Made by a program: the position numbers and the translations under genes. A stretch of 43,656 nt of DNA from positions 179,055-222,710 of IMG/VR virus record IMGVR_UViG_3300010352_001565; one strand, written 5' to 3'. This document shows positions 35-43,208 of this stretch, piece after piece (within the stretch, counting starts at the first letter, position 1; each line of letters opens with the position of its first letter). The notes below the pieces were generated by a model. The model did no database searches. It was not told the DNA's origin and saw only the letters and a list, made by a program, of their open reading frames with translations. The DNA comes from a virus.

Positions 35-316
35 CTAGGAACTCCGTCTAGTACTGACGATCGAATCAACGCCATGGGGTATGAACTCCTCACTGTAGGA
101 AAAATCACGATAAACAACCAAATCGATTGAGTTCTCCGTGGCATGAGAGAAATCTTTTACTACGGCGGATGCGCGGTCATTATCGCCGCATCCGCAATGG
201 CATGCCTTGGAGTCATCATATTTGGATGGTATTCGATCAAGTGGTCGGTCAGGCGCGTCTTCAAGACAGAAGTGTCTGCGGTTGAAATTGCGCATAAAGT
301 AACAACTTACTAGCAA
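35..316 (-). CDS. hypothetical Cys-rich protein (93 aa), transcribed away from promoter P1
   Basis: It is the only ORF longer than 60 aa in the first 350 bp. The plus strand has only an 18-aa ORF here. It has a CHCGCG Cys cluster. I recognise no homology. Confidence 0.25.
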   Translation of the reverse strand: MLVSCYFMRNFNRRHFCLEDAPDRPLDRIPSKYDDSKACHCGCGDNDRASAVVKDFSHATENSIDLVVYRDFSYSEEFIPHGVDSIVSTRRSS

Positions 317-353
317 ATAAATGTTTACAATTTCATGACGGCATGATAGAGTT
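311..353 (+). promoter_or_regulatory. conserved phage promoter copy 1 (variant -10)
   Basis: The sequence is agcaaataaatgTTTACAatttcatgacggcaTGaTAGAGT. It shares the A-rich upstream block, the TGTTTACAA -35 and a TGnTAnAGT extended -10 with the six other copies. The ATG of the first gene (359) lies 7 nt after the -10. Confidence 0.55.
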
Positions 354-358
354 CTGCC

Positions 359-1354
359 ATGAAATCTGTTTACATGGAACAGCGCGGATCATCCGGCGAT
401 GTTCAGCACAACAAGTTTTTTGAGCTCAAAGACGACGGTCGCACCGTGATCGCCACCTGGGGAGCCATTAACACCAAAGGACAATCAAAGGTCCTTGTGG
501 AATCGGAAGACCCTGCAGTACGCCAAGCGGCGTGGGACAAAAAGTTCAAGGAAAAAGCTCACCGCAAAGACAAGCCTTACGTCGTCATTAAAAAGGACGG
601 CGAACAGGTGGAAGACCGCCCATCTGCTGACGGGCGGCGATGGGGATTGGAAGTTGAGACCCACTCTAACCTGGAGCTTCGCGAGATCGCAAGGCGCATG
701 CAGGAACGCGGTCTTAAAGTCAACCTTGAATCGGGGCGCTACTTCCACTCGACAGGCGCAACATGGGATATTAAGCGCGACGGGTCATGCGGGTATGAGT
801 TCGCGAGCCCAATTTCCTCTGGGGAGCGCGGAATTTTCGACGCCAAAGTCGCGGTCGAAAAAATCCGAGAAGTTTGCCCGAACGCTGTGAACTCTAACTG
901 CGGCGTGCACGTGACTGTAGATGTCTCGGACCACAGCCCTCGAGACCTAAAGCGCCTTGCTGTTGGCTATCTCCGCGCACAGGAGCACTTCTACACTCAG
1001 TGCAACGAGTCGCGCCAGCAAAACCGCTACTGCAAGCGCAACCCGACGCAGAACATCAGCCAAATGATCGCCATGCACCCGGACAGCATCCAGCGCATTC
1101 TTGATCTTGCTGGTGGATGGAGAAACCACGATGACCGCTACCATGGTCTAAACTTCACCAGGGTCTTCTCGATCAAGGTTGTTGAGTTCCGCATGCTCGA
1201 ATCGACTGTGGCCATCCGCAAGGTTGGCGCGTGGATCGAGATGTGCGTGGGATTTGTGGACGGTCTCAAGAAATCCGGCGTCGAGTTCAAGTCAACGGGA
1301 CAGTTCTCAGAAGAGACTTTCAACCGCATACTTTCAGGAACCTTTACTGTCTAA
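359..1354 (+). CDS. amidoligase (GCS2 / COOH-NH2 ligase, glutamine-synthetase-like fold), paralog A
   Basis: Three motifs characteristic of the phage 'putative amidoligase enzyme' family are present in order: G-hEhE (WGLEVETH), G-hHhxh (CGVHVTVDV) and hEhR (VVEFRMLEST). ORFs 1739-3157 and 11647-12708 share the same three motifs in the same order. Confidence 0.6.
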   Translation: MKSVYMEQRGSSGDVQHNKFFELKDDGRTVIATWGAINTKGQSKVLVESEDPAVRQAAWDKKFKEKAHRKDKPYVVIKKDGEQVEDRPSADGRRWGLEVETHSNLELREIARRMQERGLKVNLESGRYFHSTGATWDIKRDGSCGYEFASPISSGERGIFDAKVAVEKIREVCPNAVNSNCGVHVTVDVSDHSPRDLKRLAVGYLRAQEHFYTQCNESRQQNRYCKRNPTQNISQMIAMHPDSIQRILDLAGGWRNHDDRYHGLNFTRVFSIKVVEFRMLESTVAIRKVGAWIEMCVGFVDGLKKSGVEFKSTGQFSEETFNRILSGTFTV

Positions 1355-1357
1355 CTT

Positions 1358-1732
1358 ATGGAAAAGAAGAAATCGCCAGGTCAACTCGCGTACGAAGCCC
1401 ACCACGCTTACCTCAATAGCAACCCCGATTTCAGGTATGATTCTAAATCGCCTTGGGAGAACGCTACTGAGGATGTGAAAAAGGCATGGGAACTTGGCGC
1501 GGCTGCGTGCCGCCGTCCTTTGGCTGAAAAGCTCTACAGCGCGAGGCATTACGTTACCCGTCTCCTTATCTGCTATCGGGATCACCTACTTGGGACCTGG
1601 TACGAAGACACCGCAAAAGGATGCGGCATCTCCGCGGATGGATGCGGGTTTCTCGAGCACACCTACCGCTGGGACAATCCTGGCGATAAAGGTGCCGATA
1701 AGGTTGTGGATGCGCTTGCCAGTTCTGACTGA
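1358..1732 (+). CDS. hypothetical protein (124 aa) inside the amidoligase cluster
   Basis: The ATG is 4 nt after the upstream stop. Composition is coding-like. I recognise no motif. Confidence 0.5.
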   Translation: MEKKKSPGQLAYEAHHAYLNSNPDFRYDSKSPWENATEDVKKAWELGAAACRRPLAEKLYSARHYVTRLLICYRDHLLGTWYEDTAKGCGISADGCGFLEHTYRWDNPGDKGADKVVDALASSD

Positions 1733-1738
1733 CGTGAT

Positions 1739-3157
1739 ATGCCTCGGACTAAGCTAACATACGGAATCGAGTTGGAGTGCACTAAGCTCATGCCCAACGC
1801 GGCTGAGATCATTGCACGCCGCGAGTTTGACAACCATTACGACAACTCCATCAAAGGAAACGATGGCGAGGATCTCCCGCGCGGAGAAGGTGGCGGATCT
1901 GAACTCGTCACCAAGCCTCTGATCATTGAAGCTTACTTGCACGATCGCAAAGCCGTGCTGAACGACCGGAACGATACCAAAGCGGTTGTCCGCGACCTGT
2001 GCAGCTGCGCGCAGTCCGTAAACAAATCGTGTGGTCTGCATATCCACATCGGCTGTCCGCTGGAGAGCACTGGGCGTAGCACTCAGATGAGGAGCCGCTG
2101 GAATCCAGAGCAGACGCGGACGTTTCTCGCCATCGCGCTTGCTCTCGAGGATAAGATGTTTGACCTCTGCCCTCCGAGCAGAAGGAACAACAGCTACTGC
2201 AAAACGATTCGCGAGTTATACACCAACGCAGAGCTTGAGGCCTTTCACCCCACGGGAGAAGTTGTCGCCCGTAAGTGGGACAACGCCAAGCGCTACTGCT
2301 GGTTTAACATCGTCGAGACTCTCCGGATTGACAACGTCCCGTCGTCTCCAGGAACCGTCGAGATTCGCATGCTTGGAGCAGTGCGCAGGTTTGAATACAT
2401 TTGGTCCTGGATTAACCTCTGGCTCAAGATCGGAACTTATGTGGCATTTGCTACTCCAGCTTCTGCGATAATGAGCTGCGTACATTCTGGGGCGCTAGAC
2501 GAGGACATTGAGGCAGTGAGGACCGCGAAGAATTCGAAAGTTTCTCCGGCCGCTGAGCGGTCTCCGAGCATTTCGCGAATTGACGACGAGCATCCGAGAA
2601 ACGGCAGGTCTTTGCCTGTGTTCAACCCTACTCACCAAGCGTGGGAAATTCCAGCGACTCCAAGCTGGTCAGAGTTTCCTGGTGGTGCTGAAGACGGCGG
2701 ATACTCGGGAACGCAGATCAGATACTCTGACAGTGCGGAGACCGACAGCCAGCGGCAACAACGAATGGTTCAGGATTTAGTGAACGCATCTCAGCGGTCT
2801 CGCGAGGTGGCCCAAGCGGCTCCAGCTCCTGCCGCAACTCCAGCTCCTGCCGCAACTCCTGCTCCCGCTCCAGAACCCGCACCTTTACCCCCTCCTCCGC
2901 AACGACGACGAGGGCTTAGGCCGATTCAAGAGCGCATTCGCGATGCTGTTCGAGCTGAGCGCGCAAATGCACAGCAGGAGAACGCGCAGCAAGAGGAGAA
3001 CGTTCAATCAACTCCTCCATCCTACCGCGTGGTTGGAACATCCACCGGTCGATTAACTTCTTCCGGATCGAACGTGACTAGCAGACCGCGAGAGGAGAGC
3101 GAGGGCGGAGACCACTTTAGCGTCCTTGACTACGATGGCTTTGGCGAGCACTATTAA
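1739..3157 (+). CDS. amidoligase paralog B with a Pro/Ala-rich low-complexity C-terminal extension
   Basis: Carries YGIELECT, CGLHIHIGC and VEIRMLGAV. In the amidoligase / gamma-glutamyl-cysteine-ligase-2 fold these correspond to the metal-binding Glu pair, the His pair and the ATP-binding Arg. About 150 C-terminal residues are AAPAPAATPAPAATPAPAPEPAPLPPPP-like, encoded by an 18-bp tandem repeat at about 2821-2870. Confidence 0.6.
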   Translation: MPRTKLTYGIELECTKLMPNAAEIIARREFDNHYDNSIKGNDGEDLPRGEGGGSELVTKPLIIEAYLHDRKAVLNDRNDTKAVVRDLCSCAQSVNKSCGLHIHIGCPLESTGRSTQMRSRWNPEQTRTFLAIALALEDKMFDLCPPSRRNNSYCKTIRELYTNAELEAFHPTGEVVARKWDNAKRYCWFNIVETLRIDNVPSSPGTVEIRMLGAVRRFEYIWSWINLWLKIGTYVAFATPASAIMSCVHSGALDEDIEAVRTAKNSKVSPAAERSPSISRIDDEHPRNGRSLPVFNPTHQAWEIPATPSWSEFPGGAEDGGYSGTQIRYSDSAETDSQRQQRMVQDLVNASQRSREVAQAAPAPAATPAPAATPAPAPEPAPLPPPPQRRRGLRPIQERIRDAVRAERANAQQENAQQEENVQSTPPSYRVVGTSTGRLTSSGSNVTSRPREESEGGDHFSVLDYDGFGEHY

Positions 3158-3202
3158 ATAGTTGCAAAAAAGTGTTTACAATTTTCCGTGGCGTGATATA
3201 GT
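3155..3202 (+). promoter_or_regulatory. conserved phage promoter copy 2
   Basis: The sequence is aatagttgcaaaaaagTGTTTACAattttccgtggcgTGaTATAGT. An ATG at about 3209 opens a 14-codon leaderless mini-ORF that overlaps the start of the GATase gene. Confidence 0.65.
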
Positions 3203-3240
3203 AACAATATGAATTTTGAATTTAACCAAAAGGATAAACG

Positions 3241-4278
3241 ATGTGCGCAATAATTGGTTGGGCCGGAAAGATCCCAAAAGGCCTGCTGACCCGCATGCTG
3301 ATCGGGGCTGAAACCCGAGGCAAGGATTCGACTGGACTCGCTTTTCGAGCAGTTGAAGATGGGAAGACATGCAATCTATGCTATCGCCACATCGTCCCTG
3401 CCCGCACCTTCGTTGACATCCACAAGGACTTCGTGGGAGACGCCCGGCGTTCATTCCGCGGCATTGCTCACACTCGCAATGCATCTCCTGGAATGCCGAT
3501 CGATAACTCGAACGCGCACCCATACGTCTATCCGTGGGAAAACATGGGCAAGTATTACTTTGCGCACAACGGGCGAATCCAAAACTGGAAAGTTATCAAA
3601 GCGGAGCAGATTGAAATCTACTCCAGAGAGCTGAACGAGCTGATCTCAGAATTTGTGGCGCTTACGGCATCTGGCGAGAAGCCAATGACCGCTGAAGAGG
3701 TTAAGGTCGTCCTGACTGCCCTTGCGAAAGCTGAGCGCGAGCCTGTCTCAAAAGAGCAGGATGCTCTGAAAGCACTCGCTGAGGACAAGTTCAACGCCGC
3801 TCAGGGAATCGCCGCCCGTCTTCGCTACGTCGAAAATGCGACAACAGACTCGATGATTCTCGGACCGTGCATCGAGAACCGCGACTTCAGCGAAGTTGAC
3901 GGTTGCATGGCGCTGGTCTGGATGAAAGCAGACAACGTCTATACCTTCAGGAGCGCTAAAGAAGCTGTTGCGGCGACCGTCGTTTGGAAATACAAAAAGC
4001 CAGCGTCCGGAGAACCGGCAGACGACCAGCTTGTCACCATTGTTGCCAGTACGAAAGAGATTATCGAGAAGTCATTCGACAAAATCGCGGACGCTGTTGA
4101 CTCTGACATCGCGTTCATCAACTACGACGAGGGGCGCATTTACCGGCTTATGCCCAACACCATGGTTGATGAAGGGCGCGTTCCTGTCCACCAGGCAATT
4201 GAGGACGAGTTTTCATCATCGGTCGTTGAAACCGAAACCGCTGAGCAGATCAAAATTGAAGACGCGGGAACCAAATGA
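3241..4278 (+). CDS. class-II (Ntn-hydrolase) glutamine amidotransferase-like protein
   Basis: The N-terminus is MCAIIGW, so Cys becomes residue 1 after Met removal, the nucleophile position in GATase type 2. It also has HTRNASPG and YFAHNGRIQNW (an HNG-I-N-like motif). An AAGGA RBS lies 8 nt upstream. Confidence 0.6.
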   Translation: MCAIIGWAGKIPKGLLTRMLIGAETRGKDSTGLAFRAVEDGKTCNLCYRHIVPARTFVDIHKDFVGDARRSFRGIAHTRNASPGMPIDNSNAHPYVYPWENMGKYYFAHNGRIQNWKVIKAEQIEIYSRELNELISEFVALTASGEKPMTAEEVKVVLTALAKAEREPVSKEQDALKALAEDKFNAAQGIAARLRYVENATTDSMILGPCIENRDFSEVDGCMALVWMKADNVYTFRSAKEAVAATVVWKYKKPASGEPADDQLVTIVASTKEIIEKSFDKIADAVDSDIAFINYDEGRIYRLMPNTMVDEGRVPVHQAIEDEFSSSVVETETAEQIKIEDAGTK

Positions 4279-4664
4279 TCTCTGAGCTTCATCCAACTAT
4301 CAAGTGCATCAAGTGCGGCTCTCTTGTAGAGATGGCGCGCGTCCGAATCTTCGGCGCGCACGATCCATCAGGGCGCACTTGCGCGGCGTGCGCCCACAAA
4401 GCGCAGCAGACGACGCTTGAAAGGATACGCGAGAAGAAAGCTCAAGCACAGAAAGTTCCTGACCACGAGGATCGCAAACCAAGGCAGCTGTCTTTCGGTA
4501 ACCAGATGCTAGAAGCGTTTGGCATTCCAGCGACCGCCGCTGCGGTTCGGCGCCAAAGGAAGTGGTCTCCCACCGTCTACGTATTACGGAATGGAAGATG
4601 GATACCAAAAAGCCAGGACGTTGGTAAGCCAAAAATCAATCGGATCTACGACGATGAACATTAA
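4275..4664 (+). CDS. small zinc-ribbon protein (CxxC...CxxC)
   Basis: An ATGA overlap with the GATase stop indicates translational coupling. CIKCGS ... CAACAH form a Cys4 ribbon. Confidence 0.5.
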   Translation: MISELHPTIKCIKCGSLVEMARVRIFGAHDPSGRTCAACAHKAQQTTLERIREKKAQAQKVPDHEDRKPRQLSFGNQMLEAFGIPATAAAVRRQRKWSPTVYVLRNGRWIPKSQDVGKPKINRIYDDEH

Positions 4665-5529
4665 AGAGCTTGCGTACGGCGCGTTTCAAAGTGGGATCTA
4701 CAAAAAGAACATCCACTACCTGTTCGACAACGACGACTCTATGCAGTTCATGATGGTCAAGCAGATGGCTGGGTCGCCAGGCATGACAACATGGATCACA
4801 CAGCGCGCCTATTCGAAAGCAGGAATCCAGATTCAAGTGGAGAAGGACGTCTCGCTGGATCTCGAGGCAACTGACTTTGTCGCTGAGGCGGCGACGGTTG
4901 AGAACGTCCAGTGGCCATCCCCTGTTATCGAACTCTACTTTCAGGACCCAAAGCTTCCGACCATTCTGCTGATGAAAACGTCGCCAGCGCAGGTTGCCGA
5001 GTGGTTTCCGTATCTTGAAGTCGCGCTAGAAGCTGAGTGGTACATCACCGCTTTGATTCAGGAAGGCTCGAATGAGCTGGGGAAAGTGCTCAGCGTCCAG
5101 CTAAAGCCAGATATGTGGGACGAGTTTCTGACAACCGGAGAAACCGAGAAAATGGCAACCGGTTTGATGAGCTACAACTTGTCTGAGGTGGACAACGCAT
5201 CGATGTCCTACATGCTGAACCTGGCGCTCAAGGTCCTTGCTCTCGCGTCCATTCCAGGGTACAAACCCACGCCGATGTCTCGAAAGCAGATGCACGAGGG
5301 AAAACCAGGCGTCAAAGGACGGCCGAACATGCCGTCATTCCTGCTCTCGTACGGCCAAGCTCCGCTTGCTCCTCCTGTACGGCACGAAACCTCCGGGCGC
5401 CTGTTCAAAGGACGTCGCGGGCACATCCGGTGGTACATGGACCCCCGCTATACGAACCGGAGATTCACCTGGGACTTCATTAGGCCTGTCAGGGATCCAA
5501 AGACAGGAAAGTATCCAGACAGGAGTTAA
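4654..5529 (+). CDS. hypothetical protein (291 aa); the ORF-track start at 4519 is probably too far upstream
   Basis: The in-frame ATG at 4654 (MNIKELAYG...) avoids a 145-nt overlap with the previous gene. I recognise no domain. Confidence 0.45.
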   Translation: MNIKELAYGAFQSGIYKKNIHYLFDNDDSMQFMMVKQMAGSPGMTTWITQRAYSKAGIQIQVEKDVSLDLEATDFVAEAATVENVQWPSPVIELYFQDPKLPTILLMKTSPAQVAEWFPYLEVALEAEWYITALIQEGSNELGKVLSVQLKPDMWDEFLTTGETEKMATGLMSYNLSEVDNASMSYMLNLALKVLALASIPGYKPTPMSRKQMHEGKPGVKGRPNMPSFLLSYGQAPLAPPVRHETSGRLFKGRRGHIRWYMDPRYTNRRFTWDFIRPVRDPKTGKYPDRS

Positions 5530-7189: not shown

Positions 7190-8211
7190 ATCACTTTCTT
7201 CAAAAAGACTTCGTTGCGGCTGTTGTAGTATTCAAGCGTCCAGTATTGCTGGATGGCGTAGCCAATGCGGCGCCAGAATTCGAATGAATCATCTACAGTT
7301 TCTGTCGCGATCTCAAAATCAGAGGGAGAGAATCCGTGCTGATTAAGAACTGTCTTGACAGCAATCGGCATCATGCGCTCTTTCGTCTTGAAAACATACT
7401 GAGCTCTCCTGTTGCTTCTCTTTAGTTCCTTCAAAGTCTGACAAACGCTGAACCGGTGGCGCTGGACCATCGGAGTCCCAGTAGGCTCATTAAGGTGCGG
7501 GGTAAGAATGGTCTCAACATAGCAGGCGTCGGTGGCAAGCCAGATGGGGCTAAGAGAAAGCTCCTGCATATTGAACAGCATTGGAGCAGGATCTCCAGAC
7601 GACCTTATCTTGTATCCCACGATGAAACTTCCAGCGATGATTTCGCTATTGAGCATCTGTTTCTCGGCGTCGGACGTTTTCTCTTTTCCGAGAAGTGTGT
7701 CAATGGCCTCAAGGTCAAACGTCCCGTACTTCTGGACGCACACAGAGCGGTACAGCTCAAGCCGGTGATTGGCGCGATCTCCGAACAGCATGTTGGCGTA
7801 AAACTTCCTGTCTGGAGAAGCCTCGCGGTAGCCTATCATGTTGGTCAGGATGTATAGGCGAAGAGAGCAACCGGCGTCGCTAGCAGCCTGCTCGACTCGC
7901 TGCTTTGCATCTTTTACCCGAAGTAGAGAGTCACCTTTGGTTTTGTAGACAGTTTCGTAGCAGGATTCGTACAGCATCGCCAGACTGTCGGCCTCTGGGT
8001 CTTTAACTGGGAGATCTCGAAGCCCTTTTGGAACAAAGTTGAATCTCAGTTTGTCTAAAGGAATGCGTCCTTTTCGCCGTCCAAGAGCTTTCTGGCACTC
8101 TTCAGCATGTTCGCACTTTGAGCAAAGTTCGTCTTTTCCGAACTCGAATCCGTAGCAGGGGCGTGGAGTTTGTATGGGGATGCGTTCAAGCATTGCGTTC
8201 TTTGAGAACAT
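7186..8211 (-). CDS. helicase-associated protein with an N-terminal Cys4 zinc ribbon; possible primase
   Basis: It is coupled to the helicase by an ATGA overlap at 7186-7189. The zinc ribbon is CYGFEFGKDELCSKCEHAEEC. I found no clear TOPRIM or AEP motif, so the primase call rests on context only. Confidence 0.35.
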   Translation of the reverse strand: MFSKNAMLERIPIQTPRPCYGFEFGKDELCSKCEHAEECQKALGRRKGRIPLDKLRFNFVPKGLRDLPVKDPEADSLAMLYESCYETVYKTKGDSLLRVKDAKQRVEQAASDAGCSLRLYILTNMIGYREASPDRKFYANMLFGDRANHRLELYRSVCVQKYGTFDLEAIDTLLGKEKTSDAEKQMLNSEIIAGSFIVGYKIRSSGDPAPMLFNMQELSLSPIWLATDACYVETILTPHLNEPTGTPMVQRHRFSVCQTLKELKRSNRRAQYVFKTKERMMPIAVKTVLNQHGFSPSDFEIATETVDDSFEFWRRIGYAIQQYWTLEYYNSRNEVFLKKVM

Positions 8212-11200
8212 GGAAAGAGCCGCTCGAAAGCCAAAGCAGATATACCTTGACCCTCAGGGACAGCAGTTGAGTCTTAAAGATGTCGATAAGAAATGGCGAG
8301 ACACCATCATCTATCACAACGGAACTGAAAATCGTGGCGGAAACATCGTCACCACATTCGACCCAGAAAACCCGCTAGGAACGCGGCTCCTAGAGCCTGG
8401 TCCTGATTCTCCGGTGTGCGCTAAGTGCGCGCTTTACGAGCAAGGAGCTCAGCACCCGTTCATGAAGCCGTTTGGTGCCGAGGACCCACTAGTGACGGTG
8501 GTATTTGACTCGGTGTCTGGAAAGGAAGACTCGCGCGGCGAAATCGGATCTGATGGGCCTCCAATGCTGATTCGGAAGCTGGTTCAGGAAATGGGGTTTG
8601 ACGCATCTCGAATACGATGGGCGCCGGCGACTCTTTGCTCCGCCAGGACTGGAAAGCTTCCAAACTACTCGACTAAGGGAAACCACTGCAAAATCCATCT
8701 TATTCAAGACATCGAGCAGCACCCACCGAAGATGATCATGACCGTTGGAAGCGCCGCTCTCGGACTTCTGTCGTTCAAATCGAATGCTCAAGACTGGGGT
8801 GGCCGCGTGCTGACGTATCGCGGATGGCCGGATGACTGGCTGACAGATCCTGATTACATGCTTGACCGACCTGATCCGCGCGATCCAAAGACATCTCTCA
8901 CGCGCGGACATCCCATCATGGGAAAAGCTCCAGAAGGCTTCCGAATTCCCATCGTTCCGATTCAGAGCCCGCGCATGGTTTACATGACGCAAAACCAGAA
9001 TGTCATCAAGCGCTGGAAGTCTCACGTCAAGACCGCGTTCGAGATGGCACTTCAGGGAGTTCCTCCTAAGGTTTACGACCGCGCCTATTGGAACATGAGC
9101 GTCGATCCAGACGAGATTGCTGAAAATCTCCTCTACTTGATCAACCACCCAGGAACGCTCACCAGCTACGACACTGAAACAAACGGCGTCAGACCTTGGG
9201 CAGTGGACGCTGCGATCGTGTTCATGATGTTTCGATGGACTGATGAAGATGGCAACCCGAAATCGATTGGCTTCCCGTGGAACTACCCGAACAGCCCGCT
9301 GATCAACTATCTCCCAGAGCTCGCGCCGCTCGTCCTTGAAGCTCTGTATGCCTCAGACCTCATTGGACACAACATCACGTTCGACGTCTTGTTTACCTAC
9401 GCAAACGTGCCTGGGGCCAACCTGGTTAAGCTAGCGAATGCTGCAAAATGGGATACCTGGCATATGGCATACGTCATGCGCCAGCAGCGCGGAACGTTGG
9501 GCTTGGAAATGATCGCTTACGAGTGGGTGCCTGACCTTGCGGGCTACGAAGAGGACATGACCCTCTTGATTGAGCTGCTCAGAGACCTGTTACATCCGGG
9601 AGCCGGAAAGGGAGGCCACTACGCCAACTGCCCGCGCGATAAGTGGGACACCCACCTCAAGCCCTACGTCATGGGTGACGTCGAGGTGGCTTACTGCGCA
9701 AAACCGAAGATTGAGGCCAAGCTTGGAACTGCCAGAACTTACCGAATGCCGCTGGCAGACCCAACCCGACGCGGTCGATTTCGCTTGTTCGAGCCGCCAC
9801 CCCGAAGCTGGGTTTATCCGAACGTTGTATCTCCAGCCGCGCGGATGCTCATGAATATGATGGGTCGCGGCATGCACGTGGACATCGAGGAGCTAGCGCG
9901 CCAGGAAGACATTTTTCCGAAGAAGATTAGAGAAGCTCGCGACAAACTTCGAGCGGTCGACCCGAAGATTATCGAGTGGTGCCAGCAGATGGAGGAGACC
10001 GAGCCTGGATGGGAGCTTGACCTTGAAAAGAAAGAGCACCTCAAAACAATCCTGTTTGACAGCAGACTTCTAAATCTTCCAGTCAATCGCATCACTGAGA
10101 GCGGGCAGAAGCTCTTTGGAGATACCCCAGAAGACTTGCAAGGGCTTCCGCGCGAGAAGCTGGTCGAATACGCGGCGCTGGACAAGTTCACGCTGAACAT
10201 GCTGTCAGTCGAGCATCCTCAGGTTCGGCCTCTCCAGGAATACAAGAAAATATTCAAGGCGTATACCACCTACATTCGCCCACTTCGCAACGCTTTCTCA
10301 GACAAAAAGCATGGTGGCGTTGATAAGAAACGCCGCATGGAGATACAGCACCTTATGCGAGACGGCTGCGTGCACGCCAGCTTCAAGCTGACTGGAACGC
10401 GCGGAGGACGCTTGAGCTGCTCTGATCCGAACCTTCAGCAGCTACCTCGCGACGGTTTAATTAAACGCATTTACACCAGCCGCTTTGGAAAAAGAGGGTG
10501 CGTCTACCAAGGCGACCTTTCTCAGATCGAATTGCGCCTTCTGGCTGCAGCTTGCGGAGACTCCTCAATGGTGGATGCTTATCAGCGCGGCATCGACCTG
10601 CACGCCCTGACTCACAGCAAGATTTACAGCAAGGCATACGAGGAATGCACCAACGAGTTCATGGAATGGCTGCAGGCGCACGGCAGAGACTCTGAAGCAA
10701 AGAAAGTCAAGCTCGAGCGCAAAGCCGCAAAGGTCGTTAATTTCTTGACAGGCTACGGTGGAGGAGCTTTCGGTCTACAAACCGCTCTGGCAAACGACCA
10801 GATCTACAAGACGCTTGAAGAGTGCGAAGCTCTGCTTGAGGCGTTTTTCGATGGCTATCCAGCAATGCGCCGCTACCTGTCTTACTACAAGGACTTCATC
10901 CAGCAAAATGGCGTGGCCGTGTCGATTCTCGGACGCGTTCGCATCTTTGAAGAGGTGTTTGGCGATGATCCTAAGGCGAAAAACAAAGCGCTGCGCGCTG
11001 GTTGCAACCACCTGATTCAGTCCACTGCTTCTGACTTGATGCTTATCTGCTTGACGGCTATCGAGAACATCTTGACGAACGAGGGCCTTGAATCTCAGAT
11101 GGTCTGCACGGTGCACGACTCTCTTGTGGTTGACGCTGTGCGCGAAGAGCTGCCTGTTGTCCACGACATTGTCTACGGGGTGCTCAACAACATCCCTGAC

Positions 11201-11365
11201 GTGCTCAAGCTCACATTTGGTGACAACTATGACACGTCATGGTTGTCATTTGTTCCTCTGGCTGGAGATTGCGAAGTTGGTCTCAACTACCTCGATGCGA
11301 AGAAAGTTCCTCAGCACGGCGAGATTGACTGGGACAAGCTTTTGGCACCAGCAGCCGCTCACTAA
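8174..11365 (+). CDS. family A DNA polymerase with an N-terminal family-4 UDG-like domain and a 3'-5' exonuclease domain
   Basis: The exonuclease motif is SYDTETNG. The polymerase motifs are RLSCSDPNLQQLPR, KVVNFLTGYGGGAFGL (motif B) and VHDSLVVD (motif C). The N-terminal ~250 aa resemble UDG family 4 (GEIGSDGPPMLIRKLVQEMGF...WAPATLC, HPP), but the GEAPG-type motif A is degenerate (DSVSGKED). Confidence 0.85.
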   Translation: MGMRSSIAFFENMERAARKPKQIYLDPQGQQLSLKDVDKKWRDTIIYHNGTENRGGNIVTTFDPENPLGTRLLEPGPDSPVCAKCALYEQGAQHPFMKPFGAEDPLVTVVFDSVSGKEDSRGEIGSDGPPMLIRKLVQEMGFDASRIRWAPATLCSARTGKLPNYSTKGNHCKIHLIQDIEQHPPKMIMTVGSAALGLLSFKSNAQDWGGRVLTYRGWPDDWLTDPDYMLDRPDPRDPKTSLTRGHPIMGKAPEGFRIPIVPIQSPRMVYMTQNQNVIKRWKSHVKTAFEMALQGVPPKVYDRAYWNMSVDPDEIAENLLYLINHPGTLTSYDTETNGVRPWAVDAAIVFMMFRWTDEDGNPKSIGFPWNYPNSPLINYLPELAPLVLEALYASDLIGHNITFDVLFTYANVPGANLVKLANAAKWDTWHMAYVMRQQRGTLGLEMIAYEWVPDLAGYEEDMTLLIELLRDLLHPGAGKGGHYANCPRDKWDTHLKPYVMGDVEVAYCAKPKIEAKLGTARTYRMPLADPTRRGRFRLFEPPPRSWVYPNVVSPAARMLMNMMGRGMHVDIEELARQEDIFPKKIREARDKLRAVDPKIIEWCQQMEETEPGWELDLEKKEHLKTILFDSRLLNLPVNRITESGQKLFGDTPEDLQGLPREKLVEYAALDKFTLNMLSVEHPQVRPLQEYKKIFKAYTTYIRPLRNAFSDKKHGGVDKKRRMEIQHLMRDGCVHASFKLTGTRGGRLSCSDPNLQQLPRDGLIKRIYTSRFGKRGCVYQGDLSQIELRLLAAACGDSSMVDAYQRGIDLHALTHSKIYSKAYEECTNEFMEWLQAHGRDSEAKKVKLERKAAKVVNFLTGYGGGAFGLQTALANDQIYKTLEECEALLEAFFDGYPAMRRYLSYYKDFIQQNGVAVSILGRVRIFEEVFGDDPKAKNKALRAGCNHLIQSTASDLMLICLTAIENILTNEGLESQMVCTVHDSLVVDAVREELPVVHDIVYGVLNNIPDVLKLTFGDNYDTSWLSFVPLAGDCEVGLNYLDAKKVPQHGEIDWDKLLAPAAAH

Positions 11366-11412
11366 AAATAGTTGCAAATAAATGTTTACAAATTTTAGTT
11401 TCGTGATATAGT
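11363..11412 (+). promoter_or_regulatory. conserved phage promoter copy 3
   Basis: The sequence is aaaatagttgcaaataaaTGTTTACAaattttagtttcgTGaTATAGT. The -10 sits inside the palindrome CGTGATATagtcATATCACG. The ATG at 11422 is 9 nt after the -10. Confidence 0.7.
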
Positions 11413-11421
11413 CATATCACG

Positions 11422-11643
11422 ATGAGCACAGCAAACGTGGAAAACATGACATACGAGCAGCTTCCAAAGCAAGCTCGAATCATTGCCCAAATTTTAGTCC
11501 TTCATCCTGACGCTACCCGCGCCAAGCTTGAGGAGCTCGTTCAAGCGAGGATCACAACTCGCCAGCCTATCGCACGCGTGATCAACTACTATTGGTCCCT
11601 GCTTGTCAAGCTCGGATACACCACGCAACCTGTCGCCGCCTAA
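11422..11643 (+). CDS. small hypothetical protein (73 aa), first cistron of the operon that contains amidoligase C
   Basis: The start is leaderless, directly after promoter copy 3. Confidence 0.5.
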   Translation: MSTANVENMTYEQLPKQARIIAQILVLHPDATRAKLEELVQARITTRQPIARVINYYWSLLVKLGYTTQPVAA

Positions 11644-11646
11644 TTT

Positions 11647-12708
11647 ATGCCTAACAACGGACCCATACCTTCATACGCCAGTGAGAGACTCATTGGACTC
11701 GAGCTCGAGTACGACGCAAAAACCACCAAGCTCAGCTTGCCAACGACGACACCTTCTGGCTGGTCGCGGCAGTCTGACGGCAGCCTGCAGAATGGCGTTG
11801 AGATGGTGCTCAATCCTCCTCTGACGCTGACAGATGCAACTCCAGTGGTCAAAGAGTTCGCTGACGCTTTCAACCGAGCCCGGACAAACACCTTCAGCAG
11901 CGGCGGCTTCCACGTTCATGTTCAGGTTGCGGATTACACCGAGCATGACGCCGGAAATCTCGCTCGCCTCTACCACCATTTTCAGACGCAGATTAACCGG
12001 TTGCTTGGAAAATCTCGCCACAACAACCACTACTGCCCTCCGTTTACGCACTCCGTGACAGATGCCGATCTTTCGTCGAGATTTAATCTCGGCTCGCTTG
12101 CCAGCACGAGAGCCAGCGCCAAGTCTGCCCGCAAATACCAAGTGGTGAACTTCGCAATGATGCGGTGCACTCGCCACAGCGACCGCACGGTGGAATTTCG
12201 CCAAGGAAGCACCACAAAGCGGTTTGAGTGCATCATTGGCTGGGCGGCATTCTGCGTTGCCATGGTTGAAATCGCCAAGAACGACGCCATGACCAGCGCT
12301 TACATCGGTCAGCAAGCGTCGTGGGAAAACTTCGTGCAGATGCTTCGCGACCACGAATCCATGGTTGGTGCCAGCCACATTGCTGACTGGGTGGTTTGGA
12401 GACGCGAATATCTCGAAGAGACACCGAGCGACGAGCTCATCTCAAAAGCAGTTGCCGCTATGGGACGCCGTCCTCGCGGAATCTTTCACATCTCGCGCGC
12501 TCTCGACATCAACTTGCCGCTGAGCGAGCGGACTCTAAACGCCGCCGTTTCTCGCGGTCTGATTGCTAAGATCGGATCGAAATACCAAGCAAAGTTTGTC
12601 TCATTCGCGGGGTCAGATCTTGAGCAGCTTCAACAAGCCGCGGAAGCCAGGGAGGCAGCTATGCCCGCTGACCGCTCAGGCGAGGTTCTACCTGGAGAGG
12701 AACAATAA
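11647..12708 (+). CDS. amidoligase paralog C
   Basis: Carries IGLELEYD, GGFHVHVQV and VEFRQGSTT, the same three-motif architecture as ORFs 359-1354 and 1739-3157. Confidence 0.6.
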   Translation: MPNNGPIPSYASERLIGLELEYDAKTTKLSLPTTTPSGWSRQSDGSLQNGVEMVLNPPLTLTDATPVVKEFADAFNRARTNTFSSGGFHVHVQVADYTEHDAGNLARLYHHFQTQINRLLGKSRHNNHYCPPFTHSVTDADLSSRFNLGSLASTRASAKSARKYQVVNFAMMRCTRHSDRTVEFRQGSTTKRFECIIGWAAFCVAMVEIAKNDAMTSAYIGQQASWENFVQMLRDHESMVGASHIADWVVWRREYLEETPSDELISKAVAAMGRRPRGIFHISRALDINLPLSERTLNAAVSRGLIAKIGSKYQAKFVSFAGSDLEQLQQAAEAREAAMPADRSGEVLPGEEQ

Positions 12709-13067
12709 TGTTTGAGTCGCGAAAAGTATTCGGCGCCCTCGTTTTGACGCGCTGGCAAGACTTTCCTGAAGGTGGAGAAACCTTGGAAAGCCTTCAGAAC
12801 AAGCTCTACGAGTACTACCCGAGCATTCCGCGGCATGATCTCGAGTTGTTCCGAGAGGGGTTTCAGCAGTATCCGATGTGGGGCATGGCTTTTCCGACTG
12901 GCGGTGGGTTTCAGTTCAGGCACAAGCGCGACAGCGCAGCTCCAAGCCAGGATCCCGCGCCCGTGTCTTTAAGAGCAGTTGAAGAGCGCTTATTGAGCCA
13001 GATTCAGTCGCGGGTTCATGTCCCTGATCTTCCTCAGAACCCAGTAATGCCATGGGAGGAAGTGTGA
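12708..13067 (+). CDS. hypothetical protein (119 aa)
   Basis: A TAATG overlap couples it to the upstream gene. Confidence 0.5.
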   Translation: MFESRKVFGALVLTRWQDFPEGGETLESLQNKLYEYYPSIPRHDLELFREGFQQYPMWGMAFPTGGGFQFRHKRDSAAPSQDPAPVSLRAVEERLLSQIQSRVHVPDLPQNPVMPWEEV

Positions 13068-17538: not shown

Positions 17539-17975
17539 GCTACATCCTAGCCAGCAGATACGCAGGAATAACGACCATTCCGGTAAGCCTTCCTCAGCTT
17601 GAGCTGAGACCCGGAGACTCTGCTGTTGTTTCCATGCTTAAGATCGAGCAGAACCAGAAGATGATGCTGAGGTGGCTGAGTTTGAACCTTATCAAGCTTT
17701 GCGGGGTTAACGCTACAAACCCAACTCTTATCAACCCAGGTCTCGGGATAGTCTACGCTGGAGTCTACTCTTCTGGGTACAACTCGACGTATGGTCCGTG
17801 TGGAACTCCAATCGCTCTGGTTTCAGTAAAGTCCACAGGCACCTCAATGATTAACCCGTACCACCCTAGAAACTTTGAGAGTCCTGACACCTACTCAATT
17901 ATCGTGTCGAACAACACGCAGAGCACCACAGTTAACGTCGGAGTTTCAGGATCTATTCTGTACTACTTTTTATGA
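17535..17975 (+). CDS. hypothetical structural protein, paralog 2
   Basis: It is N-terminally similar to ORF 17056-17538. Confidence 0.5.
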   Translation: MSYILASRYAGITTIPVSLPQLELRPGDSAVVSMLKIEQNQKMMLRWLSLNLIKLCGVNATNPTLINPGLGIVYAGVYSSGYNSTYGPCGTPIALVSVKSTGTSMINPYHPRNFESPDTYSIIVSNNTQSTTVNVGVSGSILYYFL

Positions 17976-20900
17976 TACAGTCGGCAAGAGTCATAGCTCA
18001 AGCGGCGAGCATCCTGGCGCAGCAGTCGTCTGAGCCTGGTGTTGTTGCTGTTATCAACGCAGAAAATACCTCTCCGATCGTAATCACGACCGCTGAACCG
18101 ACTGGGCTTGCAACCGGGGACAAGGTCTCAGTTTCTGGAGTGCTTGGAAATCTTGCGGCAAACGTGACAGACTGCACCATCACAGTTCTGAGCTCGACAC
18201 GGTTCAGGCTTAACGGCACCACTGCGAGTGGCGCGTACACTTCTGGAGGGTGGGTTAGCGGCCACACTCTGTGTCCTGCGGCAACAACTGGGGACTTTAA
18301 TCCAACCACTTTTTCAAGGCGAGACAACGAGCTTCAGTACCGCGACCTCGTAGTTGCAGCCCACCTTATGGAGGTGTCAATGCGAGCGTCGACAGTGTGG
18401 TCGTTCGTCGCTCCGCGCATCCTCATACCGTCAGTTCCGTCTCCGAACCTCGACTATAAAACGCAAGATCTTGACGCGTCTCAAGCTGGAAAAGTTCTTC
18501 ACGTTCTGAACAGCTCGTTTCCAAGTGCCGCCGTAGCGACCGACAAGCAGCTTTATTACCGCGATACCATTCTCCTTGAAGCGCTTGCTCGAGCAGGTAA
18601 GGTGTTTGAGCCAGATTTTACGCTTCTTCCTGGAGGACAGCAGATCCCATCTGCAACAATATCCGATGCGTGGTCGCTCGCAGAAGGAGCACCTTCCAAT
18701 AGGAGCGTTTCAGGAGCGCACCAGCTCAACCGCGACTTGTTCAAAGTCCCTGACCAGAATCTTGCTGACCGTGACAACCAGATTGCGTCTGTTGCATCGC
18801 GTCTTATCGCCGTGCTGACAAGCCCGCTTGACTACGCAAACAGGCTATATGTCAAAATAGGAACGCGGGAACCTACTACGTTCGCCATTGTGGAGAATGA
18901 AAGCCGCGATGACACCAGAACGTGGGCTGGAATGCCGCAGTTATCAGCTGGAAGAAATCGACTGATCTACTCAAAGTCTCAGAAGACAATGACGTGGGTC
19001 CCTGAGGATGGGTCGGCGCCCATTGTTGCGCAGGCCGTCCCTCCGACGATGGACGCTAATGGATCCACAACTGCGATGACAGTCCAAAGCTCTGGAGGAT
19101 CCATGGACTTGGTAGCGAGCATCCCGGCGTCCCCGGATGCAGTAACCAGGCTAGATCGCGCGAAGCTTCTCAAATTTAGCGGGGCGTTGGAAATCGACGG
19201 AGTCTGCTACACTGGCGACGACTTTGGAGGTCCTCTTCTAGATGGAAGCAAGTGCCTCTACACCCCGTACAACATCAGCACCGGAGTCGGTTGGGGAGAG
19301 CTTCCAGCAGGAACTTATCGCGTTTCTATTCTTGTGCGACCAGGAAGCATCCTTGAATTTCCAGGAGCAAATCTGACTTCAGGCGCCTCGTACACATTTA
19401 CGCCTCTTATTTCGAGTAGCTCTTCTCGATGGAAGCTTTCCTTTGTCTACTCAAACTCTACCGCAACCTCATGCGAAGCTGGGACGTCTGGGGCTCCACA
19501 GATTCTATCCATTGTTGCTGGAAGTGGAACATCAAACCCTGTTTATTTCGATGGATCGCCGTTGCGCATCAAGCCTCTTAACGGAACTCTTAACATCAGC
19601 AAGGTGATCCTTACAGAAGAAAATTACACCGTAGATCCTCAGTACTCGATTCATGCTGTGCTTACGGATGACATGGGGTCGAACATGGGGTCGTCGCCCG
19701 TGGACATTACCATGTACGGGCGCCGCCAGCGGTACGACGTAGTAACGTTTGATTTTACAACAACGATCGCGTCAAGACACCCTATTTTGTGGCTTATCAC
19801 AGGAGTTCAACCATGCCCACTCGTGCTTAGCGCCATTCACATTCAGGCGGCAAACGCAGTGACTGGAACTCCCGAGACTGGAGGTCACGCCGCTTGGAAG
19901 TACGACTCCCTGATGAAAGCGCTCTCCGACGTCAAGGCATCGTACAGCCAGAAGATAAATTCTCCGATCGGTCAAGAGCACCAGCTTCCAGGGACTGACT
20001 ATTTCACAAACAGGTTTACACTGTCTTTCAACAAGTCGATCATACTGGCGGGATCTAACATCTCGTCGACCTCAGAGCCAGGAGAGCCAAATCATGGACC
20101 GCTCGGGGCGTATGGAGGAAAGTCGCTTTGGTGGGCGTGGACTGCTACGCACGACTGCACCGTCACGATCAACTACGACGGCAGTCTGATGGACGACGAA
20201 GGAGTGTGCTGGGCGTCTGTCGCGATATACACGGGAGAGTCGCTGCAGTCACTGCAAAGGGTGACAACGTCTTCTCCAGGACAAAATGCAATTTCATTCC
20301 AGGCAGTGAAAGGAACAGCGTACTCTATTGCAGTTGATGGAATTAACGGAGCATCCGGGTCGATCGTACTTGCCGTATCGCTAAGCACCGCCGCAAATAC
20401 CCTTCAGGAAAATGCGGTCCCGGTTTCAAACTTCTCCGTCCGTCAGCTTGTCAGCGAGACTCAGCTCTCGGTGCCGAACTACGCTTGGTACTTGTTCACC
20501 TCTCCGGTTAGCGGCTATGTGAAAGTGTACGTTGATGGAAGCGAAAATCAAGACAGCAGAAATCTTAAAGTCACTCAGAACGGAACAGACGTAGCCGCCG
20601 TTGTAACCACGTCAAGATCTATAGTGTTTAACGCTGAGTCTGGAGTTGACTACCTCATAAAGATAGGCGGCGATGGAAAGACCTGCCTTAGCATCTCCCC
20701 TTATTACTCGAACCCAGATGGAACGTGGGATAGGAACAGCATCGAGCGCTGGATGTCTGACATTGAGACGCTGCACGCGCGCATCAAGACAGCGTTCAGG
20801 CAGTCGCGCCCAGGCGACATCGGAAAACCGTGCCTGCTTCCCCGCGGTCTGTCGGTCACAGCTAACGGGTCTGTTCACGGAGAATACGGCTCTACTTGGA

Positions 20901-25903: not shown

Positions 25904-26092
25904 CTTCTTGCACACTGGGCATATTGGGGGCTTCACACCTGTCAGTTGCTGCGCCGCACTCTTGATCGCGCCCATGGTCAAACGAACGCAGACGTAGAAG
26001 GTTACAGCAATGAGGGAAGCCAACCCACACATGAGGACTACCCAAAAGCTGATTTCGCGCGCAATATCCATACTCTTTTGGAGAACAAAACT

Positions 26093-26136
26093 TTTTTGCA
26101 AAAAAGTGTTTACAAATTTCCGAAACGTGATATAGT
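26093..26136 (+). promoter_or_regulatory. conserved phage promoter copy 4
   Basis: ttttttgcaaaaaagTGTTTACAaatttccgaaacgTGaTATAGT. The ATG at 26143 is about 8 nt after the -10. Confidence 0.7.
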
Positions 26137-29480: not shown

Positions 29481-29532
29481 CTCAAAAATAGTTGCAAATA
29501 AATGTTTACAAATTTCCGTAGCGTGATATAGT
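29481..29532 (+). promoter_or_regulatory. conserved phage promoter copy 5
   Basis: aaaatagttgcaaataaaTGTTTACAaatttccgtagcgTGaTATAGT. A leaderless 13-codon mini-ORF (MIANNPASALRAA) starts at about 29539. Confidence 0.7.
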
Positions 29533-35302: not shown

Positions 35303-35345
35303 AATACTAAAAAGTGTTTACAAAATGCTGAAAGCGTGATATAGT
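35303..35345 (+). promoter_or_regulatory. conserved phage promoter copy 6
   Basis: actaaaaagTGTTTACAaaatgctgaaagcgTGaTATAGT. The spacer is 17 bp. Confidence 0.65.
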
Positions 35346-43160: not shown

Positions 43161-43162
43161 AT

Positions 43163-43208
43163 AAAAGTTAACAAAAAGTGTTTACAAATTCTAAGTTCGT
43201 GTTAAATT
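43163..43208 (+). promoter_or_regulatory. conserved phage promoter copy 7 (variant -10 TGtTAAATT)
   Basis: gttaacaaaaagTGTTTACAaattctaagttcgTGtTAAATT. Confidence 0.55.

Follow-up and report, generated by a model that had tools for sequence, protein, structure and literature searches.

A candidate 5-hydroxymethylcytosine hypermodification module with four amidoligase paralogs in a very diverged, uncultured phage

Closest described systems

Phage-borne systems that combine a COOH-NH2 ligase (amidoligase) with a class-II glutamine amidotransferase were predicted by Iyer, Abhiman, Burroughs & Aravind (2009). We analysed a block of genes in which members of the same two families are adjacent, at positions 359-5529 of a 43,656-nucleotide stretch of viral DNA (IMG/VR record IMGVR_UViG_3300010352_001565, positions 179,055 to 222,710); this whole stretch is called the window. 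The block encodes two amidoligase paralogs, AmiA and AmiB, followed by the amidotransferase GAT. A third paralog, AmiC, is encoded further downstream in the window, and a fourth, AmiD, upstream of the window in the same phage. A first-pass annotation of the window had related the block to the theme described by Iyer and co-workers, and our results support this tie. In contrast to the systems of 2009, which have a single paralog, our phage encodes four diverged ones, two of them carry predicted DNA-binding domains, and AmiD is strictly linked to a cassette that includes a thymidylate synthase (TS)-like gene. These three features are new with respect to the literature that we found.

Thymidine hypermodification, which uses 5-HMUDK, aGPT-Pplase and PLP or radical-SAM enzymes (Lee et al. 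2018, 2021), follows a shared logic, i.e., a 5-hydroxymethylpyrimidine nucleotide is made first and amino-acid-derived groups are added later. Uncharacterised amidoligase and amidotransferase genes have been noted in such clusters (Lee et al. 2021, PMC8989533). In our phage, in contrast, the predicted base is cytosine, the kinase is dTMP-kinase-like, and no Pfam or PHROG match to 5-HMUDK or aGPT-Pplase was detected in the 37 open reading frames (ORFs) of the window and the 10 upstream ORFs, many of which carry no assignment. For lack of such matches, we discarded the ideas that the kinase is a 5-HMUDK or that an aGPT-Pplase is hidden in the window. The 5-hydroxymethylcytosine (5hmC) pathway of phage T4 (gp42, gp1 and glucosyltransferases) shares with our phage a TS-family enzyme with D143/D169/D177 and, in relatives, T4-like virion genes. 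An adjacent gene encodes a protein with sub-threshold similarity to dTMP kinases, a candidate for the dNMP kinase. Unlike in T4, this kinase-like protein is fused to a UDG domain, a conserved SAM methyltransferase gene precedes it, and the linked putative tailoring enzymes are amide ligases and not only glycosyltransferases. None of the ORFs scanned was recognised as a T4 alpha- or beta-glucosyltransferase.

An ATP-dependent amide bond on a C5-substituted cytosine is also made by CmoA, CmoX and CmoY of Synechococcus phage S-B43, and some CmoY relatives have a glutamine-hydrolysing domain. However, CmoY is of the asparagine-synthetase type and AMP-forming, whereas the ligases of our phage are predicted to be of the glutamine synthetase (GS)-fold, acyl-phosphate type, and the Cmo handle is a carboxymethyl group from Cx-SAM. 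CmoY, whose ligase family differs from that of our phage, uses ATP to join glycine to 5-carboxymethylcytosine (5cxmC; PMC12783734), and a phage enzyme O-carbamoylates 5hmC (PMC8670742). Among the ORFs scanned, we found no match to CmoA, CmoX, a DNA C5-methyltransferase or an asparagine synthase. Judged by its sequences, the set belongs to neither thymidine hypermodification nor the CmoXY system.

Outside phages, ergothioneine biosynthesis (EgtA and EgtC) and butirosin biosynthesis (BtrJ and BtrG) combine a gamma-glutamyl ligase with a class-II hydrolase or a cyclotransferase. EgtA is a GCS2-type gamma-glutamyl ligase and EgtC takes off a gamma-glutamyl group; BtrJ and BtrG are a gamma-glutamyl ligase and a cyclotransferase. 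Both types of partner enzyme occur with relatives of AmiA. Whereas these are bacterial small-molecule pathways, the ligases of our phage are phage-encoded, multiplied and fused to predicted DNA-binding domains. In our phage, the analogy draws on a weak match of GAT to the EgtC model.

Amidoligase paralogs and the amidotransferase

What the analysis shows directly is the families and folds to which the proteins belong, the conservation of their catalytic residues, the fused domains and the linkage of the genes. All four paralogs matched Pfam Amidoligase_2 (PF12224) above its cut-off of 22 bits, with E-values of 5e-21 for AmiA (76.1 bits), 1.3e-9 for AmiB (38.8 bits), 4.5e-13 for AmiC (50.1 bits) and 7e-21 for AmiD (75.6 bits). 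This agrees with the GCS2/COOH-NH2 amidoligase family proposed in the first-pass annotation. AmiA, AmiB and AmiC also matched the PHROG family 'amidoligase enzyme' (lowest E 8.5e-26). The three ordered motifs on which the proposal was based are all present, as WGLEVETH, CGVHVTVDV and VVEFRM in AmiA, YGIELECT, CGLHIHIGC and VEIRML in AmiB, and IGLELEYD, GGFHVHVQV and VEFRQG in AmiC. In an alignment of AmiA-D, the elements GxExE, D..GxE, GxH, RxxNxYC, N and ExR were invariant, so that the Glu, His and Arg positions are retained. The catalytic-type positions were likewise invariant in 46 AmiA-family and 22 AmiC-family sequences.

AF2 models were made of AmiA (pLDDT 93.9) and AmiC (pLDDT 90.4). 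Foldseek returned YbdK (1r8g) as the top PDB match of both models (E 2e-6 for AmiA and 9e-5 for AmiC), which bears out the suggested relationship to YbdK and GCS2. YbdK was followed by gamma-glutamylmethylamide synthetase (GmaS), plant glutamate-cysteine ligase (GCL), GS and Dop. Hence, AmiA-D are genuine Amidoligase_2 proteins, with a GS-like fold in the AmiA and AmiC models, and they are predicted to be ATP-dependent amide-bond ligases that use an acyl-phosphate route. In all of their structural relatives, a gamma-glutamyl phosphate or another acyl phosphate is made and handed to an amine.

The paralogs of the window are only 23-30% identical to each other, and each of them defines a separate, conserved group of orthologs. 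The paralogs are ancient, and their separate groups fit the proposal of the first-pass annotation that they carry out distinct, non-redundant steps. AmiA had 69 metagenomic homologs down to 27% identity, 66 of them with at least 39%, and none in cellular organisms among 185,579 species genomes. Homologs of AmiC numbered 23, of which 22 were aligned.

Two domain fusions came in addition to what had been seen before. The N-terminus of AmiA is a WGR domain (Pfam E 3.6e-5, 24.2 bits against a cut-off of 22), for which Foldseek found the WGR domain of PARP2 on 5'-phosphorylated DNA (6f5b/6f5f; TM ~0.53, probability 1.0) and also 2ra8. Pfam flagged a WGR domain in ~27 of the 69 homologs; the segment aligned in all 46 AmiA-family sequences used, with W34-G35 invariant. 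The C-terminus of AmiC has an H-H-H-beta-hairpin topology in the AF2 model and matched the winged helices of IclR, Sso10a, Z-alpha (TM 0.83, rmsd 1.4) and FtsK-gamma; this segment is conserved in the AmiC family. Because of these fusions, AmiA and AmiC look like DNA-binding proteins in sequence and model. The loci and contigs that we compared are labelled with L-numbers, of which L015 is the same phage upstream of the window. AmiC is encoded directly 3' of the DNA polymerase PolA both in the window and in L014. AmiB orthologs were 43-45% identical, with a length of 359 aa in L010 and 326 aa in L014, and GAT was always the next gene. They lack the Pro/Ala-rich tail of AmiB, which therefore does not appear to be the carrier or target that had been suggested.

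The ORF of GAT begins with MCAIIGW, which places Cys1 right after the initiator Met, and includes YFAHNGRIQNW, as had been noted; Cys1 has the same place in the orthologs of L010, L014 and L018. A PDB sequence search with GAT gave no significant match, and therefore its assignment rests on profile hidden Markov models and motif conservation. The Pfam match was marginal (GATase_6, 27.4 bits against a cut-off of 27, E 3.7e-6), and further profile matches were found to the N-terminal model of GlmS (1.4e-11) and to EgtC (4.9e-6). GAT and three phage orthologs conserve Cys1, RGxDSxG, HTR, NAHP, HNG and xDS. In GAT, RGKDSTG, HTR, HNG and TDS align with the equivalents of GlmS Arg26, Arg73, Asn98/Gly99 and Asp123, with a manually entered guide sequence for GlmS; those for T4 gp42 and E. 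coli ThyA used below were also entered manually. By these motifs GAT is predicted to carry a full class-II glutaminase site, in line with the class-II Cys1 amidotransferase of the first-pass annotation, and its conserved adjacency to AmiB suggests that the two proteins are partners.

Other relatives point to gamma-glutamyl chemistry. In L012 (68% AmiA identity; L012:10001-11589), the AmiA gene overlaps, and is translationally coupled to, a gene for a GGACT gamma-glutamyl(amine) cyclotransferase, which replaces AmiB and GAT downstream. The resemblance of GAT to EgtC is a hint in the same direction. The cultured but unrelated Bacillus phage 055SW001 (L110, MN176229.1:32136-34544) has an Amidoligase_2 gene ~1 kb from an annotated gamma-glutamyl cyclotransferase gene. 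Amidoligase with gamma-glutamyl(amine) cyclotransferase may thus be a general alternative to amidoligase with amidotransferase. Since relatives of AmiA pair with either an amidotransferase or a GGACT cyclotransferase, gamma-glutamyl chemistry is suggested, in which the partner enzyme could be either an ammonia donor for carboxylate amidation or a gamma-glutamyl-amide hydrolase. The conserved adjacency of AmiB and GAT favours the first role, and the interchange of GAT with GGACT favours the second.

The remaining ORFs of the block are probably not all part of its core (Table 1). No Pfam or PHROG match was found for orf124, nor a homolog in L007, L009 or L010 or among the ORFs 3' of AmiA in relatives. 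For orf291 (291 aa), the Pfam, PHROG and profile scans gave no family match, and it was not conserved in relatives. Neither orf124 nor orf291 had a counterpart in the relative with 58% AmiA identity. The Zn-ribbon protein is poorly conserved, with a weak homolog after GAT in L014 (E 4e-4) and none in L010, and it is probably accessory, with a regulatory role. Small ORFs of this kind had been put forward as carriers or targets of the ligases, an idea that the missing counterparts of orf124 and orf291 and the weak conservation of the Zn-ribbon protein argue against. Of the small zinc-ribbon ORFs that had been mentioned, only one is clear in the block. The last ORF, for which a start at 4519 had been assumed, more likely begins at 4654, as called on four public contigs. 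Two genes had been described as coupled by ATGA overlaps; the block has one true overlap of this type, between GAT and the Zn-ribbon gene (4275-4278). The Zn-ribbon gene overlaps orf291 by 11 nt, AmiA and orf124 are separated by 3 nt, and the junction between AmiC and orf119 is a TAATG.

Upstream of these genes are copies of a promoter family with seven members in the window. The copies consist of an A/T-rich upstream part, TTTACA, a spacer of 16 or 17 nt and a TG-extended TA(T/G)AGT, and they are sigma-70-like and strong. Copies 1 and 2, to which the first-pass annotation had attributed transcription of the block, are real members of this family. Only 6 nt separate the -10 end of copy 1 from the ATG of AmiA at 359, and the AmiA mRNA is therefore expected to be leaderless or nearly so.

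Table 1. Positions of the genes, promoter copies and further loci discussed in the text (L-numbers: compared loci; all other positions: window)
Feature	Position	Strand	Description
Promoter copy 1	308-352	+	-35 TTTACA 324-329, -10 TAGAGT 347-352; repeat family D1/D4/D5
AmiA	359-1354	+	WGR domain aa 1-90 (nt 359-628) and Amidoligase_2 catalytic domain
orf124	1358-1732	+	Small ORF between AmiA and AmiB; lineage-specific, probably not core
AmiB	1739-3157	+	Amidoligase_2 domain ~aa 1-240 (nt 1739-2458); disordered, Pro/Ala-rich, basic tail, lineage-specific
Promoter copy 2	3154-3202	+	-35 TTTACA, TG-extended -10 TATAGT 3197-3202; precedes GAT operon
GAT	3241-4278	+	Predicted stand-alone class-II (Ntn, Cys1) glutamine amidotransferase; lineage-specific helical insertion ~aa 125-205
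Zn-ribbon	4275-4664	+	C4, DksA/TraR-like; weak Pfam match zf-dskA_traR (0.0056)
orf291	4654-5529	+	Lineage-specific, probably not core
Promoter copy 3	11364-11412	+	Precedes orf73-AmiC-orf119
orf73	11422-11643	+	First gene of AmiC operon; sub-threshold Pfam match HTH_WhiA (0.076, 13.9 bits, cut-off 27)
AmiC	11647-12708	+	Amidoligase_2 domain and C-terminal winged helix aa 262-315 (nt 12430-12591)
orf119	12708-13067	+	1-nt overlap (TAATG) with AmiC
Promoter, other copies	26088-26132; 29484-29528; 35309-35333; 43160-43204		Same seven-copy family
Ligase-like nucleotidyltransferase	L003:4573-5160; L020:13187-13912; L115:13132-13713 (-); L013:5157-5855		Side observation
Intein, AcrVA2-like, DMP19-like, GSP_synth	L010:15762-18110 (-); L016:11556-12716 (-); L115:11250-12413; L112:1-555		Side observations

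The upstream cassette, its linkage with AmiD and the source phage

Contigs with both AmiA and the flanking 93-aa ORF of the window (100% identity for each) extend upstream. About 6-8 kb upstream of the window they encode, in this order, a Methyltransf_23 protein (MT23), KinUDG, a 271-aa TS homolog (TS-like) and AmiD; AmiD itself is 6-7 kb from the window. KinUDG combines a P-loop protein that resembles dTMP kinases with a fused UDG-superfamily domain. Its matches to dTMP-kinase models were both under the cut-offs (Pfam 3.2e-5, TIGR00041 1e-5), and its phage matches were annotated as thymidylate kinases or not annotated, with no ViI, M6 or SP10 phage among the 25 listed. A canonical ThyA is encoded a further 3 kb upstream (L015:7555-8484); this protein of 309 aa has an insertion of ~40 residues relative to E. 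coli ThyA.

The best PDB matches of TS-like were the CMP hydroxymethylase MilA and T4 dCMP hydroxymethylase. In E. coli ThyA numbering, N177D is diagnostic of dCMP as substrate, L143D/E of a hydroxymethyl product and D169N of a 5-hydroxy-dCMP synthase (Lee et al. 2026, PMC13326640). TS-like has D143 (DVTC), D169 and D177 (RSNDVVLGLVFD), as in T4 gp42, whereas the second TS of the same phage reads L/D/N at 143/169/177, i.e., with Asn177. Asp177 of TS-like aligns with T4 Asp179 in PDB entry 1b49, and this column alone was confirmed independently of the manually entered guides. TS-like thus has the sequence signature of a 5hm-dCMP synthase, and from D143/D169/D177 the phage is predicted to make 5-hydroxymethyl-dCMP. 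The alternative product 5-hydroxycytosine (RB69/DLP3 type) was rejected, because position 169 is Asp and not Asn, as was dUMP as substrate (giving 5-hydroxymethyluracil), because Asp177 aligns with T4 Asp179. The first-pass annotation had seen no synthase for hydroxymethylated cytosine or uracil. This holds inside the window, but a TS of the 5hm-dCMP-synthase type is encoded 6-8 kb upstream of it.

A KinUDG-seeded search returned 80 IMG/VR loci, nearly all of which had MT23, KinUDG and TS-like. All TS-like sequences that were readable by motif search (84/84) were D/D/D, and that of L017 was D/D/D by alignment; eight other TS readings were canonical ThyA-type copies, the control TS (L/D/N) and one regular-expression mis-hit (L017). 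Hence, the MT23-KinUDG-TS-like cassette is very widespread in viral metagenomes; we found no paper that describes it. The contigs with the cassette were mostly 20-57 kb long and without an amidoligase, and since most carriers lack one, the cassette appears to be self-standing. The methyltransferase of the cassette (cassette at L015:8863-11715 in this phage, L019-L098 elsewhere) is weakly UbiG-like.

When an amidoligase adjoined TS-like, as the next gene or divergently, it was always an AmiD ortholog (38-55% identity). Such loci were found in the phage of the window and L020, in L016, in L018/L024/L025 and in L103-L107. In an AmiD-seeded IMG/VR search, we distinguished loci of AmiD orthologs (at least 36% identity) from those of generic phage amidoligases (at most 29%). 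Within 6 kb, TS-like (D/D/D) and KinUDG were present in 6/6 AmiD-ortholog loci, in contrast to 0/74 generic loci (Fisher p = 3e-9, or 7e-7 with near-duplicates collapsed to four lineages); these statistics count loci and not independent evolutionary events, and several of the lineages come from a single broad clade of large phages that encode TubZ. The linkage outlasts rearrangement, as shown by the divergent orientation in L016, a 13-kb contig with an AmiD ortholog beside its TS-like gene. TS genes near AmiA in L006, L101 and L102 were not counted as linkage, because they appear to be of the canonical ThyA type; the L007 copy aligns with Asn177 and the others show a ThyA-like RTGxGT motif.

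The genes studied here also occur together in longer contigs. A 92.9-kb relative has homologs of AmiA, AmiB, AmiC, GAT and KinUDG and an AmiD-like paralog; a closer ortholog of AmiD is the one on L016, which is related to it. An uncultivated viral genome of 230 kb has AmiA and the amidotransferase at one site and AmiC, TubZ, KinUDG, ribonucleotide reductase (RNR), TS-like (D/D/D) and AmiD at another. Relatives with 58-61% AmiA identity retain the gene order AmiD-baseplateJ-AmiA-(small ORF)-AmiB-GAT-...-DnaB-orf341-PolA, with AmiC after PolA in L014.

The window covers early and replication genes of an uncultured and very diverged phage. Among its further products are a DnaB helicase, PolA, an XPD-like helicase, a NAD-dependent ligase, RecA/UvsX and two glycosyltransferases. 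Megablast of the window against 50,697 phage records gave no match, and no close cultured relatives were found; the highest amidoligase identities were 23-32%, and PolA is ~25% identical to that of SP-10/SPO1-like Bacillus phages. Public metagenome contigs, the longest of 222,710 bp, encode identical proteins. Contigs of relatives, 90-230 kb in length, carry genes for a T4-type Gp23 capsid protein and an S77 prohead protease, which points to a place in a large T4-like myovirus clade and a T4-like genome of roughly 220 kb.

Several other features were observed in the course of the analysis. Residues 1-330 of PolA (8174-9160) form an N-terminal extension with a CxxC motif to which Pfam gives no assignment, and matches to phage PolA proteins leave the first ~240 residues uncovered. 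An ORF of 503 aa without family match (39732-41243), directly upstream of the RecA/UvsX-like gene (41246-42643), has four direct repeats of ~46 nt each (40605-40800) within an acidic and Arg-rich stretch. The 1018-aa ORF at 17972-21028 has a weak match to ubiquitin-E1 FCCH (9e-7), just under the cut-off. The glycosyltransferases of the phage are of the GT2, GT9 (heptosyltransferase-like) and DUF5672+GT90 types (window 36149-37747 and 38006-39262; L003:5845-7392); they gave no match to known DNA glycosyltransferases, and are possible candidates for DNA glycosylation. Further upstream in the same phage, an AAA ATPase gene adjoins a gene for a prokaryotic YEATS-domain protein of 111 aa (L015:964-2432).

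In four loci, an ATP-dependent-ligase-like nucleotidyltransferase of ~195-240 aa, with KxDG (KLNGD in L003) and without OB domain, is encoded a few kb from AmiD or AmiA. As the WGR fold recognises 5'-phosphorylated breaks, this protein might belong to the same system as the ligases. Two relatives have DUF6734 proteins next to the cassette, and in L104 a gene for a GDP-L-fucose synthase lies near it (L104:7255-8241; L112:6560-7972). Furthermore, the DnaB gene of relatives contains an intein (Hom_end_hint), AcrVA2-like and DMP19-like (DNA-mimic) genes lie beside the cassette, and a GSP_synth ATP-grasp amidoligase gene is located 10 kb from a cassette without AmiD.

Proposed function and competing explanations

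Tentatively, and with somewhat less than even confidence, we read the block as the larger part of a post-replicative module for hypermodification of 5hmC in DNA, built on GS-like ligases. The presence of TS-like, KinUDG and AmiD at 6-8 kb upstream lends contextual support to a cytosine in DNA as target. In the scheme that follows, the substrate, the sequence of the reactions and their chemistry are inferred. TS-like, by its diagnostic residues, would turn dCMP into 5hm-dCMP, which KinUDG would carry towards 5hm-dCTP for incorporation by the phage PolA. AmiD would spend ATP to activate a carboxylate as acyl-phosphate, as GS/GCS2-fold enzymes do; the carboxylate is probably that of an amino acid, most likely glutamate via its gamma-carboxyl. 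The hydroxymethyl-cytosine moiety, or a group attached to this moiety beforehand, would then receive it from AmiD. AmiB, together with AmiA and AmiC, which would dock on DNA through the WGR domain and the winged helix, respectively, would add amide-linked units to the adduct on the DNA or lengthen those present. GAT might supply glutamine-derived ammonia to AmiB, so that a free carboxylate is capped as carboxamide, or, like EgtC or GGACT, it might cleave a gamma-glutamyl amide and expose an amine. The genes would be transcribed from host-type sigma-70 early promoters along with the replication genes, and the finished modification would shield the phage DNA against host nucleases. With slightly less confidence again, we propose that the side chain on 5hmC is an amino-acid, gamma-glutamyl-peptide-like or amine group, made by Amidoligase_2 proteins as DNA-tailoring enzymes, with four GS-fold ligases and GAT as the finishing enzyme.

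Several points weigh against this proposal. The evidence for a modified base is indirect, and no isolate was found. We know of no GS/GCS2-fold enzyme that acylates an alcohol, and 5hmC offers only a hydroxyl. An enzyme that installs an amine or carboxylate on the base was not found among the ORFs scanned; a uronic-acid sugar as carboxylate handle was considered and dropped, the sole sugar-nucleotide enzyme near the minimal cassette being GDP-L-fucose synthase. Tight linkage with the cassette is limited to AmiD, while AmiA, AmiB, AmiC and GAT are 6-20 kb off and sit among baseplate and replication genes, and L009, L012 and L013 carry AmiA without a cassette within 10 kb. Most carriers of the cassette have no amidoligase, and the cassette hence works without one. 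The family as such is not DNA-specific, as none of the 74 generic amidoligase loci had TS-like. Finally, the WGR domain and the winged helix could equally tether an enzyme that acts on DNA-bound proteins.

Some of these points fit a generic system of amidoligase and class-II amidotransferase or GGACT whose substrates are soluble amines, peptides or metabolites of the host; during host takeover, for instance, polyamines or amino acids might be gamma-glutamylated and de-glutamylated. In this case AmiA, AmiB, AmiC and GAT would play no part in the modification of DNA, and only AmiD would be linked to nucleotides. Pairs of Amidoligase_2 and amidotransferase are widespread in unrelated phages without TS-like, including the OM43 phages (PMC10580990), and the pairing in 055SW001 has no hmC cassette within 5 kb on either side. 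Furthermore, all structural relatives (YbdK, GCL, GmaS and GS) act on small molecules, and the three loci with AmiA and no nearby cassette agree with this explanation. We nevertheless consider it unlikely, for it leaves unexplained why AmiA-family proteins conserve a WGR domain and AmiC-family proteins a winged helix, the presence of AmiD and cassette in genomes with AmiA and AmiC wherever sequence suffices, and the fixed place of AmiC directly after PolA.

The same fusions would serve ligases that modify DNA-bound proteins, such as host nucleoid, RNA-polymerase or phage replication proteins. The WGR domain and the winged helix would give access to these proteins, glutamate or other amino acids would be added to their side chains, and GAT or GGACT would edit or reverse the tag. 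T4 ADP-ribosylates host RNA polymerase early in infection, and early sigma-70-type promoters are expected of host-takeover genes. AmiC is structurally similar to the depupylase Dop, and eukaryotic COOH-NH2 ligases have been termed 'chromatin protein amino acid ligases' (Iyer et al., PMC2938197). Yet no conserved small target or carrier accompanies the ligases, and the strict adjacency of AmiD to a 5hm-dCMP synthase and kinase would have no explanation; modification of DNA-bound proteins is therefore improbable in our view.

More improbable still is tailoring of folate, in which the ligases would build, and GAT or GGACT would trim, poly-gamma-glutamyl tails on the folate of TS-like and ThyA. 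AmiD does lie beside folate-dependent TS-family enzymes, AmiA is directly 3' of a baseplate-J-like gene in three lineages, and the hints of gamma-glutamyl chemistry would suit it. Kozloff and co-workers reportedly found folyl-polyglutamate in the T4 baseplate. However, AmiD follows the hydroxymethylase-type TS and not the canonical ThyA/ThyX of the same genomes, known folylpolyglutamate synthases belong to the Mur-ligase family, and the DNA-binding fusions would be unexplained. A T4 tail review of 2010 makes no mention of the baseplate-folate claims.

Alteration of peptidoglycan or another envelope polymer by the ligases and GAT against superinfection, for which the ligase and glutaminase MurT/GatD that amidate peptidoglycan and the GT2 and GT9 (heptosyltransferase-like) genes in the window might be cited, is the least probable of all, because no signal peptide or membrane segment is evident in the ligase or GAT translations and because the DNA-binding fusions and the linkage with the cassette suggest an action in the cytoplasm, on nucleic acid. 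For phiEco32-type systems, a passage of PMC10580990 attributes an envelope role to Iyer et al. (2009).

Phage amidoligase and amidotransferase genes have been catalogued since 2009 in many genomes; to our knowledge, a function has been demonstrated for none of them. This locus is the clearest testable lead on phage amidoligase function that we found in this analysis, and Bacillus phage 055SW001 could serve as a tractable amidoligase model. If hypermodification of 5hmC is true, it would bring a new class of enzymes, and probably a new chemical type as well, to the natural DNA hypermodifications; cytosine would bear amino-acid or gamma-glutamyl groups in amide or ester linkage, or amines derived from them. 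Widespread phage amidoligases would thereby have their first assigned function. Consequences would follow for how phages evade restriction and CRISPR, for the bias of virome sequencing and for the enzymatic tools available to functionalise 5hmC.

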